Position numbers and translations under genes: made by a program
Shown: positions 4,138 to 50,383 of the stretch, piece after piece
How the letters are laid out: every line of letters begins with the position of its first letter
Numbering within the stretch: the stretch's first letter is position 1
The notes under the pieces: generated by a model
Told to the model about the DNA's origin: nothing
The model's database searches: none
Seen by the model: the letters and a program-made list of their open reading frames with translations, nothing else
From: an uncultured virus (IMG/VR IMGVR_UViG_3300030060_006470)
Taxonomy: Duplodnaviria; Heunggongvirae; Uroviricota; Caudoviricetes
DNA: 64,000 bases
Reading direction: 5' to 3' (one strand)
Virus record (IMG/VR): IMGVR_UViG_3300030060_006470

Positions 4138-4476
4138 ATGAAAAAAGTAGAAGCCATCATCAGGAAATCTCAGTTTGATGATGTGAAGACTGCGCTCATG
4201 AACGTTAAGGTAACTTTCTTTAGTTACTGGGATGTAACTGGGCACGGTAATGAGAAAACAGGACACGTTTATAGAGGCGTGGAATTCAGTACCAACGATA
4301 TTCAGCGAAGGTACTTATCAATAGTTGTTTCAGACGAATTTCTGGACCGAACTGTAAATGCCATATTAGACTCTGCTTGCACGGACAAGGTGGGTGATGG
4401 TAAGATATTTGTTTCCGATGTTCAGGAAGCGTATAGAATAAGAACCCGTGAAAGGGGAAATCAAACCTTAAACTAA
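4138..4476 (+). CDS. glnB: Nitrogen regulatory protein P-II (GlnB/GlnK family)
   Basis: MKKVEAIIR N-terminus, T-loop YRG, GDGKIFV, RIRTRERG; 112 aa; directly upstream of amtB. Confidence 0.95.
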   Translation: MKKVEAIIRKSQFDDVKTALMNVKVTFFSYWDVTGHGNEKTGHVYRGVEFSTNDIQRRYLSIVVSDEFLDRTVNAILDSACTDKVGDGKIFVSDVQEAYRIRTRERGNQTLN

Positions 4477-4483
4477 GAAAGAT

Positions 4484-5713
4484 ATGGAAATGTTAACAAC
4501 AAACAACATATGGATGATGATTTGTACTGGACTAGTATTTTTCATGCACCTAGGATTTTCATTCTTAGAGATTGGATTGACACGACAAAAGAATACAATT
4601 AATATTCTTTTCAAAAACATCTTCATCATTTGTATGGGGCTATTGGTCTACTATATCGGTGGATTTAACCTCATGTACCCAGGATTCGAAGATGGTGATT
4701 TAGGTATCTTAAAGTTTGCAGGTTTCGGAATTGATGCCCCTGTAAATGGTATGACTGCCGAGTATGCCAGTGGTGGTTACACATGGTGGACAGATTTCCT
4801 TTTCCAAGGAATGTTTGCCGCAACAGCCGCAACTATTGTTTCTGGCGCTGTAGCTGAAAGAATCAAGCTAACAAGCTTCATGTTATTCAGTTTAATTTAT
4901 GTTGGATTAGTATATCCAATAGTAGGTTCCTGGAAATGGGGCGGTGGATTCTTAGATAATCTAGGGTTCTATGACTTTGCTGGAAGTACCTTAGTTCACT
5001 CCGTTGGTGGATGGGCAGCTTTAGTGGCAGTATGGTTATTGGGTGCCAGAATTGGTAAATTTAAACTTGGAAAAACTATACCAATTTTTGGGCATAATAT
5101 CCCTTTCGCTACTGCGGGAGTATTGATTTTATGGTTAGGATGGTTTGGATTTAACGGTGGTTCAGTGCTTAGCGCAGACCCAGCATTAACATCACTAACG
5201 TTAGTCACCACTTGCCTTGCAGCCGCTGCTGGAGGTATAGGTGCCGCAATTACATCTTTTATTAAAGACAAGGCATTTGATTTAACAATGTTCTTGAACG
5301 GAATACTAGGTGGACTAGTTGCCATTACAGCAGGTGCAGACCAAATGTCTCCAAACGAATCGGTAGTTATCGGAATCATTGGAGGTATCTTAGTTGTACT
5401 TGTAGTATCTATGTTAGATAAACTCAAATTAGACGACCCAGTTGGTGCAATTGCAGTACACTTAGGTTGTGGAATATGGGGGACTTTAGCTGTAGGTATC
5501 TTTGGTAACATGGCTGGTGCTGGTCAATTCATGACACAACTTACAGGTGTTTTAGTTATTGGTGCTTTTTGTTTAGTTAGTTCTTTCTTGATTTTATTTG
5601 CTATCAAGAAAACTATGGGACTTAGAGTATCAAAAGAAGAAGAACTTGAAGGTTTAGATAACGCTGAACATGGTATGTCCGCATACCCTGACTTTAGGCT
5701 TAATCAACATTAA
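4484..5713 (+). CDS. amtB: Ammonium transporter
   Basis: FQGMFAATAATIVSGAVAER, DFAGSTLVH, GWFGFNGGS, DDPVGAIAVH; many hydrophobic segments. Confidence 0.97.
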   Translation: MEMLTTNNIWMMICTGLVFFMHLGFSFLEIGLTRQKNTINILFKNIFIICMGLLVYYIGGFNLMYPGFEDGDLGILKFAGFGIDAPVNGMTAEYASGGYTWWTDFLFQGMFAATAATIVSGAVAERIKLTSFMLFSLIYVGLVYPIVGSWKWGGGFLDNLGFYDFAGSTLVHSVGGWAALVAVWLLGARIGKFKLGKTIPIFGHNIPFATAGVLILWLGWFGFNGGSVLSADPALTSLTLVTTCLAAAAGGIGAAITSFIKDKAFDLTMFLNGILGGLVAITAGADQMSPNESVVIGIIGGILVVLVVSMLDKLKLDDPVGAIAVHLGCGIWGTLAVGIFGNMAGAGQFMTQLTGVLVIGAFCLVSSFLILFAIKKTMGLRVSKEEELEGLDNAEHGMSAYPDFRLNQH

Positions 5714-5771
5714 TAACATTAATAACATAAGGGGGTTAATCACCCCCTTTAATTTACATAAAAATTTAAAA

Positions 5772-6776
5772 ATGAAAAAATTAATTACAATCTTACTTGT
5801 TGTACTAGGTACGACATTTATTTACGGTCAAGATAGCTTGGCTACAGAAAAATCAAAACTTTCTTTTGAAGGAAGCGCTGACATTTATTACAGAAGGAAT
5901 TTAAGTACTTCAACTACTGACGTTGCACCTGCAACATCATTTGCCAATTTAAATGGTTTCTCATTAGGTATGTTTAACCTGGTTAGCTCTTATGATACAA
6001 AGAACACAGGATTCGTTGCTGACTTAGTATTTGGACCTCGTGGAGAAGATGCAGTATTCTTGTCTTCAGGTAGTTCTAATATCATCAATCAGTTATACGC
6101 TTACTGGGATGTTAATGACAACCTTACATTTACTATGGGTAACTTTAATACCTTCTTAGGTTATGAAGTTATTTCACCTACAGGAAACTTTAACTATTCA
6201 ACTAGTTATATGTTTTCTTATGGACCATTTTCACACAGTGGACTAAAGGCTGACTTTAATTTATCTGAGAATCTTACAGGTATGTTAGCTGTTTTAAACG
6301 CAACAGACGCTACTGAATACAACCCAACTAACCTAAACACATTAGGTGCTCAGTTAGGTTATAAGGACACGTATCTTAACGCACTTTATGGTAAACAAGA
6401 TTCTAGTTCCGAAGCTACTTTCCAAGTAGATTTAACAGCTGGTTATGATTTATCAGATAAGTTTTATTTAGGTATAAACACAACTTACAATGAAACTGAT
6501 GGTTCTGGATTCTATGGAGCGGCATTATACCCTCAATATAACTTCGGTAAATTAACCACTGGTTTAAGAGGAGAATATTTTGCTGAAACAGGTTCTGGAG
6601 TTGGAGCAATTGGCCCAGATGCGAATGTTATAAACTTTACCGCAACTTTGGATTACGCTATAGAGAATCTAAATCTAAAGTTAGAGTACAGGTTTGACAA
6701 AGCAAGCGAAAAAGTTTTTGAACAAAAGGATAACTTAGCCAGCATTGTATTAGCGGCGGTTTATTCTTTTGACTAA
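5772..6776 (+). CDS. Outer-membrane beta-barrel porin (Amt-associated type)
   Basis: Signal peptide MKKLITILLVVLG; GNFNTFLGYEVISP and YMFSYGPFSHSG motifs; aromatic C-terminus; real start 5772 rather than 5670. Confidence 0.85.
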   Translation: MKKLITILLVVLGTTFIYGQDSLATEKSKLSFEGSADIYYRRNLSTSTTDVAPATSFANLNGFSLGMFNLVSSYDTKNTGFVADLVFGPRGEDAVFLSSGSSNIINQLYAYWDVNDNLTFTMGNFNTFLGYEVISPTGNFNYSTSYMFSYGPFSHSGLKADFNLSENLTGMLAVLNATDATEYNPTNLNTLGAQLGYKDTYLNALYGKQDSSSEATFQVDLTAGYDLSDKFYLGINTTYNETDGSGFYGAALYPQYNFGKLTTGLRGEYFAETGSGVGAIGPDANVINFTATLDYAIENLNLKLEYRFDKASEKVFEQKDNLASIVLAAVYSFD

Positions 6777-6866
6777 AAAATGTGCTTTATAGATGAGTAT
6801 ATCGATGATTTAGCGGTAGATTCAATCATTGATAATCCATTAAATTATAAAATAAATTAGATTTTA

Positions 6867-6898
6867 TTTGGTAGAATGAAATAAAATTAATATATTTG
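6867..6898 (+). promoter_or_regulatory. Bacteroidota consensus promoter in front of the structured RNA
   Basis: TTTG-N20-TATATTTG. Confidence 0.75.
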
Positions 6899-6900
6899 AG

Positions 6901-7114
6901 AAACTCTCCAAGCTGACGGGGAAGCAAGTGAGTATTGGTAATCACTCCAGTTGAAAAAGAATAACAACCAGATTGTTATATCACAACACTACCAAGAAAG
7001 TGTTAGCTTTGACAGAAGATGCCTGACACTGGGATAAGAACCCAGCTCGTTTTGTAGGTGAAGATTGACGTTTAAGTAATCTACGTGGTATTCCACTTGG
7101 GGACTTGGAGAGTT
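6901..7114 (+). ncRNA. Unknown structured RNA family, copy 1
   Basis: 12-bp closing stem AAACTCTCCAAG/CTTGGAGAGTTT plus CAAGTG/CACTTG and AACACT/AGTGTT; conserved blocks recur at 7907 and 49505. Confidence 0.75.
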
Positions 7115-7131
7115 TTTAAAATATTTTAGAT

Positions 7132-7320
7132 ATGGATAATATAGAAAAAGAAATTATAAGAAGATTTAAGCCAAACACTAAATTCATATCATTGTTTGGT
7201 ACTAAGGATGAAGTAAATTTAAAAGATGAATACTACATAAAAAATGGGTGTGGTTTTGTTTTAGGTAAAAAAGAATTTAGAATGATTTATGACAACGGAT
7301 GGTGGGCAGACATTCTATAA
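7132..7320 (+). CDS. Hypothetical protein
   Basis: 62-aa ORF. Confidence 0.6.
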   Translation: MDNIEKEIIRRFKPNTKFISLFGTKDEVNLKDEYYIKNGCGFVLGKKEFRMIYDNGWWADIL

Positions 7321-7352
7321 GAGGACTTGGAGAGTTTTTAAAACATTTAGAT

Positions 7353-7544
7353 ATGGATAAAAATAAGATAAAAGAAAGATTAAGTGATTTAAGGGATGAA
7401 ATTTATAACGCAGAAGATGTGATAGATGGGGCTTATAATAGCAAAGACAAAAATTTCAAGGAGTACAAAGAAATAAACGTTAAATATGATGCTCTTTTAA
7501 AAGATATGAATAAGTTAGTTGGGCTGTTAAACGAGCTTGTTTAA
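7353..7544 (+). CDS. Hypothetical coiled-coil protein
   Basis: Start MDKNKIK in the same duplicated context as 7132. Confidence 0.6.
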   Translation: MDKNKIKERLSDLRDEIYNAEDVIDGAYNSKDKNFKEYKEINVKYDALLKDMNKLVGLLNELV

Positions 7545-7554
7545 AATATTTTAT

Positions 7555-7679
7555 GAGAGAATAGCTCAGTTGGTAGAGCAACCCTATCCTACTTAGTAGA
7601 AAATTGGATAGGTTGAGGATAGCGGTATACAGCTAAAATTGTAAAAAGGTTGCAGGTTCGAGTCCTGTTTTTCTCACCA
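7555..7679 (+). ncRNA. tRNA-like RNA with an expanded, branched anticodon region
   Basis: Acceptor GAGAGAA/TTTTCTC-A-CCA, D-arm GCTCAGTTGGTAGAGC, T-arm GCAGGTTCGAGTCCTGT; ~70-nt middle with no 7-nt anticodon loop. Confidence 0.75.
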
Positions 7680-7711
7680 AATTAATAACGTTCATTAAAA
7701 TATTGAAAATA

Positions 7712-7801
7712 AGTGGTGTAGCTCAGAAAGTATAGGAGCACCTAGCACGGTAACCAACCCGTGGGACGGAGGTACGTTGGGATGAACGCCAACCACCACT
7801 T
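7712..7801 (+). ncRNA. Atypical tRNA-like RNA
   Basis: Acceptor AGTGGTG/CACCACT, D-stem GCTC/GAGC, CACGG/CCGTG arm, T-stem GTTGG/CCAAC with a non-canonical loop. Confidence 0.6.
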
Positions 7802-7906
7802 TAATAAAGTAATATAGCAGAAAGTAACGGGGAGGTTCCGCACGGCAAGAGGTATCTTGAAAGACGTGAAACGCTTGATGCTGGTTGATACGACTATTAC
7901 TATTTT

Positions 7907-8100
7907 AAACTCTCCAAGCTAATGGATGAGCAAGTGAATACGCTTACAGTGCTAGGCTGTCTCAGGAGGAAACAACTCAGGTATCACAACACTCCAAGAA
8001 GTGTTAGCTTTGAAGTTAGATACTTTACAGGACAAGCTCTGCATTCCTTAACCATAGGAAGTATTTATGCGAGTATTCCACTTGGGGACTTGGAGAGTTT
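7907..8100 (+). ncRNA. Unknown structured RNA family, copy 2
   Basis: Same closing stem and conserved blocks as 6901-7114; 3' half nearly identical to copy 3. Confidence 0.75.
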
Positions 8101-8104
8101 TTAT

Positions 8105-8204
8105 GAGAGAATAAAGAGAAACAATACTGGACAGTTGGTAGCTCTAACGATTAGATAGCCATCAGATGGAAATCTTAATGTAGGTTCGATTCCTGCTTCT
8201 CTCA
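8105..8204 (+). ncRNA. tRNA-like RNA with degenerate D and anticodon regions
   Basis: Acceptor GAGAGAA/TTCTCTC-A, T-arm GTAGGTTCGATTCCTGC. Confidence 0.65.
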
Positions 8205-8477
8205 CATTTAAAATACGTGCTGTTTAATCAACAGCTAGTGTGATTACGCATGATGAGAAGGGTTATGATTTGACTCAGTAGTTGCTTGTATGGAGGTACG
8301 TTCCCTACCCGTATCAGACGGTCATGATTGAAAGGGGTCATTCCTGAATATTGAATTAAGAGTGTGAATCTGTTAGCCCTAACTTGAAACGCAATGCTTG
8401 GACGTTTGTCTCGGAGTAGTTGATGTTGACAGGACAGTCGTAAGATTGGGTGAATTTTAATTTAAACCAAAATAACT

Positions 8478-8651
8478 ATGAGTAAATTATACACACTAGA
8501 AGAGGTTAAAGAATTATGTATGATGGCATTTGATGATGGATTCGATGCTGGTCATTATGATGAACAAGAAAAAGATGGTAGTTGGTGGGTTAACAATAAC
8601 ACTACTAATATTCAAACTGTAAATACTAAAACTCAAAGTAAAGATGGATAA
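8478..8651 (+). CDS. Small hypothetical protein flanked by degenerate MSKE junction motifs
   Basis: TTTAAACCAAAATAACTATGAGTAAA at the start and CAAAGTAAAGATGGATAAAGAA at the end. Confidence 0.55.
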   Translation: MSKLYTLEEVKELCMMAFDDGFDAGHYDEQEKDGSWWVNNNTTNIQTVNTKTQSKDG

Positions 8652-14956: not shown

Positions 14957-15052
14957 GGTAGAGTTTGACTTGACAGACATTGGATAAAGGGGTGGCGCGA
15001 TTCAAGGTGGAAAAAACCTAAACCCGAAACAGTTCGAATCTGTTATCTACCA
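14957..15052 (+). ncRNA. tRNA-like RNA occupying one cassette slot of the MSKE array
   Basis: GGTAGA/TCTACC-A acceptor, T-arm AACAGTTCGAATCTGTT; junction motifs on both sides. Confidence 0.6.
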
Positions 15053-23569: not shown

Positions 23570-25190
23570 TATGTATGTTACTACACTAATTAATACACCC
23601 CTTATTACTTCATATAAGAGCCTCTAAGAGACTTTATAATATGTTCCTATAACTTATGTATTCCATATCCGTTTTGTCCTTATATTAGCACGTTTCGCTT
23701 TTTTGGGGTAAAGTGGGAAAATGTGGTAAACGGTGGTAAAGAGTGGGATTTTGAGTAAGAGCTGTACCAGGGAATATAAAATATATACTAAATAGGTTAT
23801 TTTATGGCATAATTAAGATTAACCTCTGGCCACCTACTCGACAAATTTTATATTATTTTTTATAAAATCCCTGTTAAATATACTATACGATATTTCTTAC
23901 CACAAATTACCACAGAAATTAATTGTACCTTTTTGTATATCCTAAAATGTACACATTTGTGTATATGGCGGCAGAATTATTTTGATATATAAAATGATAT
24001 TATCTGTGTAAATATATTGTATAATATATGTGTTTAAATATAGTATGATATATGATAGATATATTATATTGACTGGCATATAATATATGATTTAATAAAT
24101 GCCAGTAAATTAAAATACTGGCAATAATTAGTTAAGATATAACCTGCCATATATCCTATAAAAATATATTAATATAAATGTAATTACCTGGGGAGATATT
24201 GTCACGGGACCTACTGATATTATATACGATATACTAGTTGAATTATAACCTGTCATATATCATATATTATTTGACAATACTTTCCTGGGTCACTCAAATT
24301 GAGCATCCTCGTCCATCATACCCGTTCAGGTAATCAGGGGGTCATTTTCTCCCGTCCCAGAATGTACACATTTGTGTATAAGGTTCTGGTCCTGGCTTCT
24401 CCAGCTGCGTCTTGCTGGCCGTATATATTTATAATATTTATTTTGTATTAAATCCTGTTTTATATTATCAGGTTATATATCATATAATATATAATTCAAA
24501 TATATTGCGCCCGTTATTCTTAATAACTATTATTAGCGCTTATAATAATCAGGCTGCACCTATAATATATAATCCAGTATGTCTGTAGTGAAATGTATAT
24601 CCCTGGGTCTGGCCTCCAGCTGCATCGCGGGTCCCATAATAAAATTAACGGGAGCACCTGACGCCGTAAACCTTGTACGGGATAAAAGCTTGCAATGAAT
24701 TCTGGGGACCTGGGTCACCCGTGTGAGACTCTTAGGAAAATCTCGTGCAAGCTTGAGCGGTACCATGCTATGTTTTCAGGTTATACACAAATGTGTATAT
24801 GGTGCCGTCATCCTTATTCTAGATATCGATTGTTAAATATAAAATAACATTTAACGATTTTTATCCAGATACTAGGTTACCCGCGAGAATCTCTTCAGGC
24901 GGGATTAAAAATCATGAGGCAATATGCGCCTCATTTAAATATATGTTGCAATATACAAATAATATTTCAATTGACCAAATCTAAAATGATTTTTGGTCAG
25001 GATGTATATATTATATTGTATACGTATATATACGATTATAAAATATAAAGTAATATGCATATGTATGCACCTGGATGTTTCACCTGGCGTCATATCATGT
25101 ATCCTATTATATCGTATAATGTCATTAAAATATAGTAAAGATATTTCATGTGACCAAATATAAAATAAAATTAAAGAAATATTAAATAAT
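23570..25190. other. Large non-coding region (candidate origin, terminus or long ncRNA locus)
   Basis: About 1.6 kb without a credible ORF; alternating AT- and GC-rich blocks; three TACACAWWTGTGTA palindromes; many CCWGG/CCTG motifs. Confidence 0.7.
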
Positions 25191-30494: not shown

Positions 30495-30734
30495 TTACTA
30501 TATTGCAGTATGGAAAAGATAACGACAGAAGAAAAACATGATATAGTTCTTAAAGCTATAATGGAAAGGTACTATGGTTTAAATGGTTGTATCTGTCAGC
30601 TACGTGAGGATGCTGATGTGGTTTATGTTAATATTGCTGATGATATTAATTATGTGATTGAGGAGGATGAGATAGAAGAAATAATTAATGAACTTGTTAC
30701 ATAATTTTTTTTATTAACTATAAAATTAAGAAAT

Positions 30735-32755: not shown

Positions 32756-33229
32756 ATGAGCATGGTAAATCAAATTGAGTGCCCAACAGAAGTTGGAAGA
32801 GAAGTTTTTAATTTCAATGATGGTGGTAGAGCCGAAGCAGGGTTTAAAGGTATTACGGGTGATTGTGGTGTGAGAGCGTTGGCAATAGCTTTACAACTAC
32901 CATATAAAGAAGTTTACGACAAGGTAAATGAGTTTTGTAAACAAGAGAAACCAAGCAAACGTAGACGAGGTATTTCTTGTGCGAGAACGGGAATACATAC
33001 TGTTACGTTTCATAAGATTACCAACTATTATGGTTTAGAGTGGGTACCCACAATGGGTATTGGTACGGGTTGTAGTGTACACCTTAAAGCAGACGAACTA
33101 CCAAAGGGAAGAATAATTTGTAGGGTGTCTAAGCACTACGTAGCATTAGTTGATGGTGTTATTAATGACATTTACGATTGCAGTAGAGGGGGTGCTAGAT
33201 GTGTGTATGGGTATTGGAAAGTTAAGTAG
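32756..33229 (+). CDS. Conserved phage hypothetical protein (GDCxxRA family, possibly peptidase-like)
   Basis: GDCGVRALAIA...HYVALVDGVINDIYD...VYGYW. Confidence 0.8.
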   Translation: MSMVNQIECPTEVGREVFNFNDGGRAEAGFKGITGDCGVRALAIALQLPYKEVYDKVNEFCKQEKPSKRRRGISCARTGIHTVTFHKITNYYGLEWVPTMGIGTGCSVHLKADELPKGRIICRVSKHYVALVDGVINDIYDCSRGGARCVYGYWKVK

Positions 33230-49504: not shown

Positions 49505-49746
49505 AAACTCTCCAAGCTAATGGATGAGCAAGTGAAAAACAAGGTCGGCTCTTTGAGCTAAAGTCACAACACTACCATTTTTAGAGTAATAGGACAATAA
49601 GGATGAATAAATCGGCAATCCTCCCCTATTATAATGGTTCCAAGAGTGTTAGCTTTGAAGTTAGATACTTTACAGGACAAGCTCTGCATTCCTTAACCAT
49701 AGGAAGTATTTATGCGAGTATTCCACTTGGAGGACTTGGAGAGTTT
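49505..49746 (+). ncRNA. Unknown structured RNA family, copy 3
   Basis: Same closing stem and blocks as 6901/7907; ~70-nt insertion between AACACT and AGTGTT. Confidence 0.75.
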
Positions 49747-49750
49747 TTAT

Positions 49751-49908
49751 GAGAGAATGGCGAAATTGGTAAACGCAGGTGTGGTCAAAGCCTATATGGA
49801 TGGGTGTGTGAATAATGAATAGCACATTCTTAGCTCATGGTAAGAACTACCTAACTAATAACAGCTAAACGTAATTTAGTATTGCAGGTTCGAGTCCTGT
49901 TTCTCTCA
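49751..49908 (+). ncRNA. tRNA-like RNA with a very large branched insertion
   Basis: Acceptor GAGAGAA/TTCTCTC-A, D-arm GGCGAAATTGGTAAACGC, T-arm GCAGGTTCGAGTCCTGT; 158 nt. Confidence 0.7.
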
Positions 49909-50305: not shown

Positions 50306-50383
50306 TACGGTATTGGTGTAGGGACGGTCTCATGAGCCGTTTGGGAGATATCCCCCTGAGTGGTTCGAATCCACTAACCGTGA
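50306..50383 (+). tRNA. Atypical tRNA with CAT anticodon (Met/Ile2), no D-stem, long variable arm
   Basis: Anticodon arm ACGGT-CTCATGA-GCCGT, T-arm AGTGGTTCGAATCCACT, acceptor TACGGT/ACCGTG. Confidence 0.6.

Follow-up and report, generated by a model that had tools for sequence, protein, structure and literature searches.

tRNA-shaped frames with exchangeable interiors in an uncultured phage, one of them holding a conserved pseudoknotted domain

Phages T4 and T5 encode tRNA-like stable RNAs that have been of unknown function for decades. The 64,000-nt stretch of DNA analysed here (the window), from an uncultured tailed phage recorded as IMGVR_UViG_3300030060_006470, poses a related question: what are RNAs for that keep the upper half of a tRNA and carry unrelated sequence where the anticodon arm should be? 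Three such elements lie on the plus strand, at 7555–7679 (copy 1, placed by comparison and Rfam), 8105–8204 (copy 2, by comparison) and 49751–49908 (copy 3, by alignment and BLAST). When re-measured, they had the positions and the lengths of 125, 100 and 158 nt given in the initial annotation; in copy 1 the discriminator is the 122nd base and an encoded CCA follows it. We found that all three pair GAGAGAA with TTYTCTC in a 7-bp acceptor stem followed by A73, and have a 5-bp T-stem with a TTCGANT loop, which bears out the common acceptor and canonical T-arm described there. The acceptor of copy 1 includes a G5–U68 wobble. Normal D-arms, also as annotated, are present in copies 1 (class I) and 3 (class II, with A15–U48); copy 2 retains the D-loop motif within an enlarged D-arm. 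Copy 1 is the only window copy with an encoded CCA, and its type is the only such type among the 19 frames of this lineage. A pattern made from the three 3′ ends matched three times in the window and in none of 100 shuffles; having been built from the copies themselves, it shows only that the repeat is not due to chance. The Rfam scan proposed in the initial annotation scored only copy 1 as a tRNA (43.8 bits), and ARAGORN called no tRNA on any of the three copies.

We refer to the part between the D-arm and the T-arm of a tRNA frame as its interior (72 nt in copy 1). The interiors of the three copies are unrelated to one another, as first described, but that of copy 3 has distant homologs elsewhere. 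Interior 1 recurs unchanged in a single related locus (L158) that may share its origin with the window, and had no distant relative in the phage collection and related loci; interior 2 had no relative in the same sets. In the phage collection, matches to interiors 1 and 2, and likewise to the interiors of L173 and L014, did not rise above chance level. The multi-branched folds ascribed to the inserts are, for copies 1 and 2, an energy prediction only, with folding little above that of shuffled sequences (z = −1.6 and −1.1, respectively; copy 3, −0.2).

Pattern scans of viral and metagenome contigs returned 23 distinct frame matches, of which the 19 belonging to this lineage were kept; the remaining four (L021, L044, L085 and L100) have other acceptors or no link to the lineage. 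The frames were selected on patterns in the acceptor and T-arm, and most loci had been fetched through a structured RNA that lies upstream of copies 2 and 3. A pattern scan of the genome collection, with a pattern that proved too loose, yielded no frame. Two related records (G008 and G010) have no such frame, so the frame is dispensable. The 19 distinct frames are 71–230 nt long and enclose 14 unrelated types of interior. None of them has a canonical anticodon arm (a 5-bp stem and a 7-nt loop with U33 and a purine at position 37), and the shortest (71–82 nt) are likewise non-canonical. In the acceptor and T-stem, 99.6% of 228 cells were paired, 13 cells had both sides changed and none of 500 shuffles scored as high, a count that overstates independence because the 19 frames are close relatives, with 8 of the 12 pairs (five of seven in the acceptor and three of five in the T-stem) invariant. 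Two frames with a common interior, L202 and L224, show a full swap between A–U and G–C at pair 5–68; L195 has an A–C mismatch in its acceptor.

The elbow of the frame shows a similar pattern. Positions 15 and 48 are A–U or G–C in 17 of the 18 frames with a normal D-arm, the exception being copy 1, the sole frame with G15/U48 in place of this Levitt pair. Counted once per interior type, the pair was present in 12 of 13 (Fisher p = 0.007). This contact of the L-shape also served as the test for YrlA RNAs in the accessible part of PMC4201824. Alternatively to selection, bases 15 and 48 could have been inherited together from donor RNAs. Together with the missing anticodon arms, the covariation in the frame and the Levitt pair support the earlier suggestion that these elements are non-decoding tRNA mimics, probably under structural selection.

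These observations also bear on whether the elements are decaying tRNA pseudogenes that have collected insertions. Copies 1 and 2 are off-pattern (G15/U48 and the enlarged D-arm) and have orphan interiors, some relatives lack frames, and the frame of L007 has a Tyr-like 9-nt loop and is called tRNA-Tyr by ARAGORN. However, changes in the frame and the Levitt pair are compensatory, and no half-broken frame was found of the sort expected from random decay among relatives, the outcome that the initial annotation had set against its own reading. End-anchored searches led to complete frames for 17 of 21 5′ matches and 18 of 24 3′ matches, the others being coding-like sequence, ordinary tRNAs or a hairpin within the upstream RNA; loci judged to be chance or foreign (L157, L168, L186, L192, L203 and L211) were excluded from these half-frame tests and from the tests of flanks, upstream-RNA ends and excision described below. 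Because the frame and Levitt pair covary and broken halves were not found, decay of the frame family as a whole appears unlikely. Copies 1 and 2, with a broken Levitt pair and an altered D-arm, could be in early decay, and for these two a pseudogene origin is possible; for copy 3, with its deeply conserved interior, it is unlikely. As an account of all the elements, we consider pseudogene decay very unlikely.

Another possibility is that the elements are intron-containing pre-tRNAs, spliced to working tRNAs. The available portion of a preprint on Lak phages (10.1101/356790) reads oversized tRNA genes as holding ‘enigmatic introns’, and those genes resemble the elements here in their size and in having inserts that are conserved between samples. 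For the Lak genes, an intron-less tRNA allele can be aligned, according to the same portion, whereas here excision from the window copies restores none and the short alleles, of 71–82 nt, are non-canonical as well. A single excision produced a class I or class II cloverleaf in none of the three window copies and in none of the six outside copy-3 homologs. Two of the nine frames of at least 90 nt (L170 and L173) did give a canonical cloverleaf when cut once, compared with 4.5–9.5% of shuffles, and Rfam gave no match to group I or group II introns. The inserts are thus not introns, in line with the initial annotation, which judged them too short for group I or II introns, and splicing to functional tRNAs is in our judgement highly improbable.

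As judged by comparison of loci, the interiors are modules that have been replaced between frames. Copy 2 and L179 have both flanks in common, and the elements between these flanks measure 100 and 77 nt, respectively, and have unrelated interiors. Likewise, the flank 3′ of copy 3 was found behind seven interior types. One interior can also occur with different frame alleles, as in L202 and L224 and in copy 3 and L196; in the latter two, 106 of 107 interior bases are identical and the T-arm differs at 3 of 17 bases. Comparing the interiors with one another and with the variable arms of the upstream RNA gave no match of at least 15 nt beyond the same interior type, except for one weak 21-nt match in an unrelated locus. 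This result spoke against the interiors as guides or as sequences in common with the upstream-RNA arms. The simplest route of exchange would be recombination within the loops of the D- and T-arms, whose sequences are common to most tRNA-like genes. Separately, three loci (L180, L217 and L232) resemble empty slots when read by eye.

Comparison across phages established the interior of copy 3 (49778–49883, from an alignment of eight members) as a conserved domain with a predicted pseudoknot, found in otherwise unrelated phages. In BLAST searches, positions 49763–49897 matched cyanophage S-CRM01 (73% over 134 nt, E = 2e-12) at an unannotated stretch between tRNA-Ala and tRNA-Val in its tRNA cluster. 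Further members were found in Pseudomonas phage GP100, Xanthomonas phage Xoo-sp13 and Variovorax phage V45v66. Three more, on uncultured phage contigs (L416, L421 and L439), came from a pattern scan. The first such scan returned 37 stretches, of which only S-CRM01 itself was real; the second returned 59, which included the three new members and S-CRM01. The members in S-CRM01, L416 and L421 sit among tRNA genes; in the sequence retrieved around those of GP100, Xoo-sp13, V45v66 and L439, ARAGORN called no tRNA. The frames of this family measure about 153–159 nt, and their acceptor stems differ between members. Since the copy-3 interior sits in other acceptors, the acceptor common to the window copies characterizes this phage lineage and not the RNA family.

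In a MAFFT alignment of the eight members, 97.5% of 277 cells were paired, and 25 of 35 pairs showed compensatory changes, compared with 5–8 in slid controls; the structure was derived from the same sequences that were used for counting, which favours it. The acceptor was compensatory at all seven pairs; it therefore appears to carry shape and no fixed synthetase identity. Covariation places an extended anticodon arm at 49778–49851 of the plus strand. It begins with a 4-bp anticodon stem (49778–81 with 49848–51), beyond which lie an internal loop, a 3-bp stem (49790–92 with 49839–41) and a 7-bp hairpin stem (49802–08 with 49823–29) with changes on both sides at all seven pairs; the second loop, between the 3-bp stem and the 7-bp hairpin, contains conserved unpaired AYGGAY and CAY. 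The strand that follows the hairpin (49830–49835) is predicted to pair with 49863–49868 in the loop of the variable arm (about 49854–49880), forming a 6-bp pseudoknot in which four of the six pairs are compensatory, 93.8% of cells are paired and at least three pair types occur across members. RNAalifold independently recovered the nested stems and the variable arm, with another register at the base of the anticodon arm. When Xoo-sp13 was held out of the training of a model of this interior (R1), it scored 76 bits, compared with at most 51 bits for other tRNAs and frames (41 sources); by eye, its pseudoknot requires a shifted register.

The copy-3 family appears to be rare. Model R1 found nothing new in 46 of 48 phage records, which included T4, the matches in the other two being training members, and no member in five single genomes. 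It also found none in 68 genomes of one Bacteroidota order, a weak result from a search with no positive control and with candidates partly scored. Rfam gave no match for the copy-3 interior at E up to 1 or 10, and copy 3 had no match among plasmids. Weak BLAST matches in L186, L211, L297, L063 and L213 had no support from model R1, which represents the copy-3 interior only. Likenesses to twister, glmS, group I core and TwoAYGGAY motifs did not hold when the members were compared by eye, and Rfam did not support them. The literature on phage tRNA-like RNAs that we consulted contains no description of the family. The supplement files that were searched for a catalogue of 10,006 viral candidate RNAs (PMC10690425) gave no match, although the family may be listed elsewhere in that catalogue; the accessible part of PMC9964418 does not mention it, and a text search of PMC3014915 returned nothing on it.

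RNase P and the 3′ processing enzymes act on the acceptor and T-arm shape of a tRNA. The frames could thus be pure processing tags, marking cut sites that free an upstream RNA, with the interior as neutral filler. By comparison, a structured RNA with a conserved core and variable arms precedes copy 2 (7910–8097, plus strand), and another precedes copy 3 (49508–49743, plus strand). Both copies begin 7 nt past the terminal motif of this RNA (at 8097 and 49743), and the 4–5 nt spacing reported initially is obtained if the closing stem is lengthened with A–U pairs. Overall, 12 of the 19 frames lie 7–8 nt after this 3′ motif, a proportion biased by the fetching of most loci through that RNA. An ordinary tRNA occupies the same position at two loci, and most interiors fold at shuffle level, as filler might. 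In plant mitochondria, t-elements work in this way, being tRNA-like shapes beside the end of another RNA that RNase P and RNase Z can read (as described in the available part of PMC1920247).

By contrast with t-elements, the linkage here is optional, and one of the interiors is itself conserved. We took 62 distinct 3′ ends of the upstream RNA with at least 100 nt of sequence beyond them and scored adjacency within 15 nt: 12 had a frame, 2 an ordinary tRNA, 1 another frame and 47 no tRNA-like element. In the window itself, a further upstream RNA (6904–7112, plus strand) has no adjoining frame, since copy 1 begins 442 nt later and does not adjoin an upstream RNA, and the window scan detected an orphan 3′ end at 7326–7334 of the plus strand. 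Moreover, a covarying interior of about 107 nt that also occurs in unrelated phages, as in copy 3, would be superfluous for a tag. The initial proposal that the frames release the upstream RNA is therefore weak. Because 47 of the 62 ends lack a tRNA-like element, the frame is not needed as a cut mark, although it can probably act as one, and we regard tagging alone as an unlikely explanation.

In the upstream RNA itself, the core is constant and two or three arms are hypervariable, with the same inserts occurring in different arms; these inserts are not common to the frame interiors. They also occur in neighbouring RNAs (window copies and loci L007–L014 and L158–L239). A six-base hairpin loop in the upstream RNA covaries by eye with the strand before its 3′ end, which suggests a pseudoknot, and the RNA has no Rfam match. 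Among 24 matching sequencing runs, 21 were recorded as RNA, with shares of only 0.05–0.10 for these, and four runs (three RNA and one of a kind not recorded) were aligned to 6700–8600 as assembled contigs. Contigs from RNA libraries covered 7098–7371 and 7725–8022, which are parts of the upstream RNA, and these neither show transcription nor test splicing. None covered the interiors of copies 1 or 2, and none contained a joint across an interior.

Phages use tRNAs against PrrC, PARIS and retron effectors, and anticodon nucleases recognize the anticodon loop. One might suppose, then, that the elements are whole-molecule decoys, whose tRNA shape soaks up anticodon nucleases or tRNA-sensing defences while the interiors diversify to escape cutting. 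The intact elbow and the absence of a canonical anticodon loop from all 19 frames would fit such a role, as would the sharp differences between the interiors of close relatives, which an arms race would predict. However, the missing part is the very loop that these nucleases target, and the copy-3 interior, instead of diversifying, has been conserved even between distant phages. In the literature searched, we found no paper on tRNA-frame decoys of this kind. We consider this explanation improbable.

The elements had also been proposed to be Y-RNA-like or tmRNA-like mimics, which would work with Ro60/Rsr or SmpB. In phage YrlA RNAs, another domain replaces the anticodon arm, whereas the acceptor, D- and T-arms are retained, as are the contacts of the elbow, among them the Levitt pair (available part of PMC4201824), much as seen here. 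According to the same source, YrlA RNAs are permuted, with a closed acceptor between the T and D arms, and lie near an Ro60/Rsr gene, whereas the window elements are not permuted and TROVE was absent from all 101 window ORFs. A TROVE gene is present on one of five records with the copy-3 family, about 119 kb away, and none was found in the other four, which include S-CRM01, GP100 and G013. ARAGORN and Rfam gave no YrlA or tmRNA match to the elements. A tmRNA combines a G3–U70 alanine acceptor with a tag frame, and all 19 frames have G3–C70 instead. An unannotated permuted tmRNA does lie about 200 nt after the copy-3-family RNA in Xoo-sp13 (L400, 888–1231). Taken together, these data leave the Y-RNA or tmRNA reading scarcely credible. 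All 19 frames also have a 7/5 layout of acceptor and T-stem, unlike the 8/4 or 9/3 layout of allo-tRNA (PMC7609411).

We think that the elements are probably tRNA-shaped RNAs of the T5 RNA1/RNA2 type, in which the frame serves as a handle for processing and stability and the interior is an exchangeable cargo. The T5 record (AY543070) annotates RNA1 (30501–30644) and RNA2 (32959–33083) as ‘tRNA-like stable RNA with unknown functions’. When folded, both have a frame with D- and T-arms, an extended anticodon arm and a variable-arm hairpin, as seen here; they are similar in size and alternate with further stable RNAs annotated without a function. RNAs of this type lie in phage clusters of tRNAs and other small RNAs, as do the elements at 6904–8204 of the window. 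Their interiors are not homologous to that of copy 3, since model R1 scored them at 37 and 14 bits, the level of ordinary tRNAs. The T5 record notes no interior exchange or pseudoknot, and the T5 RNAs are stable RNAs by annotation, whereas ours are known from sequence alone. The kind of frame is thus already known, and what appears to be new is the mobile, putatively pseudoknotted domain inside it. For interiors 1 and 2, a cargo role is an extrapolation from copy 3, because they have no distant homologs and fold little above shuffles.

In this frame-plus-cargo model, the acceptor stem, the T-arm and, in most cases, the D-arm and Levitt pair are kept, as the comparison shows, so that the L-shaped upper half is under selection. 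Host RNase P would then cut the 5′ end, and 3′ nucleases and the CCA-adding enzyme would finish the 3′ end, as expected from their enzymology. The small RNA would thereby be protected, and the upstream RNA would incidentally gain a 3′ end. The part between the D-arm and the T-arm is swapped as a module, as seen from unrelated interiors in the same slot and from one interior in several frame alleles; the route would be recombination in the D-loop and T-loop sequences, with the frame as the recombination boundary. The pseudoknotted domain of copy 3 has moved between unrelated phages irrespective of acceptor sequence, as its distribution indicates. Up to this point, we hold the model as a whole to be probable. 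A last and weakest step, which we put forward tentatively and with more doubt than belief, is that the mature RNA acts in trans by tying up a host protein that binds tRNA, for example a defence nuclease or a translation factor. The conserved unpaired bases would then be a putative binding surface, with catalysis as a bolder alternative.

A broader reading, which we consider possible but rather doubtful, is that phages use tRNA frames as natural scaffolds from which to express functional RNA domains, these forming an exchangeable library. The domain in copy 3 would then be an uncatalogued pseudoknotted RNA with its own activity, either as a ribozyme or through binding to a host protein of defence or translation, and would have been passed among phages of cyanobacteria, proteobacteria and probably Bacteroidota through recombination in the D- and T-loops. 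If this were true, the tRNA-like stable RNAs of T4 and T5, long without an explanation, would be carriers, and oversized ‘pseudo-tRNA’ calls in phage genomes would be not debris but a reservoir of unread RNA domains. Two features of the locus offer a handle on the question: a frame that occurs with 14 interchangeable interiors, and an interior whose fold is supported by covariation. The copy-3 interior occurs in four cultured phages and is hence open to expression, probing, deletion and pull-down.

The small stable RNAs of the T4 tRNA region, species 1 and 2 (rnaC and rnaD), offer a looser parallel. They are late RNAs of unknown function in the account given by the accessible part of PMC9697503. 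Like the elements here, T4 rnaC has a T-arm, and long arms take the place of its lower half, but it folds with no normal D-arm; model R1 matched neither rnaC nor rnaD. In tRNAs with a theta (HDV-like) ribozyme, as described in part of PMC10879173, a minimal HDV-like ribozyme cuts at the end of the tRNA; Rfam found no ribozyme match in the window. Other unusual tRNA-like genes were seen among the loci. Four phage tRNA genes (L130, L135, L141 and L147; by eye Phe, Thr, Lys and Asn) have a CAGCAA-like insert between the D-arm and an intact-looking anticodon arm and could be a distinct class of interrupted tRNAs. On the minus strand of L002 (about 690–760), a phage tRNA cluster includes a permuted tRNA-like RNA with a YrlA-like layout, in which the T-arm and the 3′ strand of the acceptor are followed by its 5′ strand and the D-arm.

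Two more framed RNAs lie on the plus strand of the cluster between copies 1 and 2. One, at 7712–7800, has a second kind of tRNA-like frame, with a D-arm, an 8-nt T-loop and no anticodon loop, and is also present in L158 and L179. The other, at 7808–7902, lies immediately 5′ of the upstream RNA, and in L199 the same termini enclose a different interior. Neither had a match in the phage collection. Elsewhere in the window, a tRNA-like element at 14957–15052 has a T-arm, acceptor-like ends and an encoded CCA, its D-arm and anticodon arm not being clear, and an odd tRNA-Met(CAT) at 50306–50382 was called by ARAGORN only; its relative in L189 has a changed anticodon, and other relatives vary in the T-stem.

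The window is AT-rich and phage-like, with numerous short ORFs, each set behind repeated promoter-like motifs, and Pfam matches were obtained for just 10 of the 101 ORFs tested. These include a P-II protein, an ammonium transporter and a BBP2 porin at 4138–6776, a cassette immediately 5′ of the RNA cluster. The porin and the promoter form TTTG...TATATTTG, which we take to be typical of Bacteroidota, suggest a host in that phylum. At 25170–59450, dozens of near-identical promoter-like repeats, each followed by a small ORF, give the appearance of a cassette-like early region. The stretch that follows copy 2 (8213–8470) is non-coding and higher in G+C and folds at shuffle level, and its start recurs after the frame in L179.
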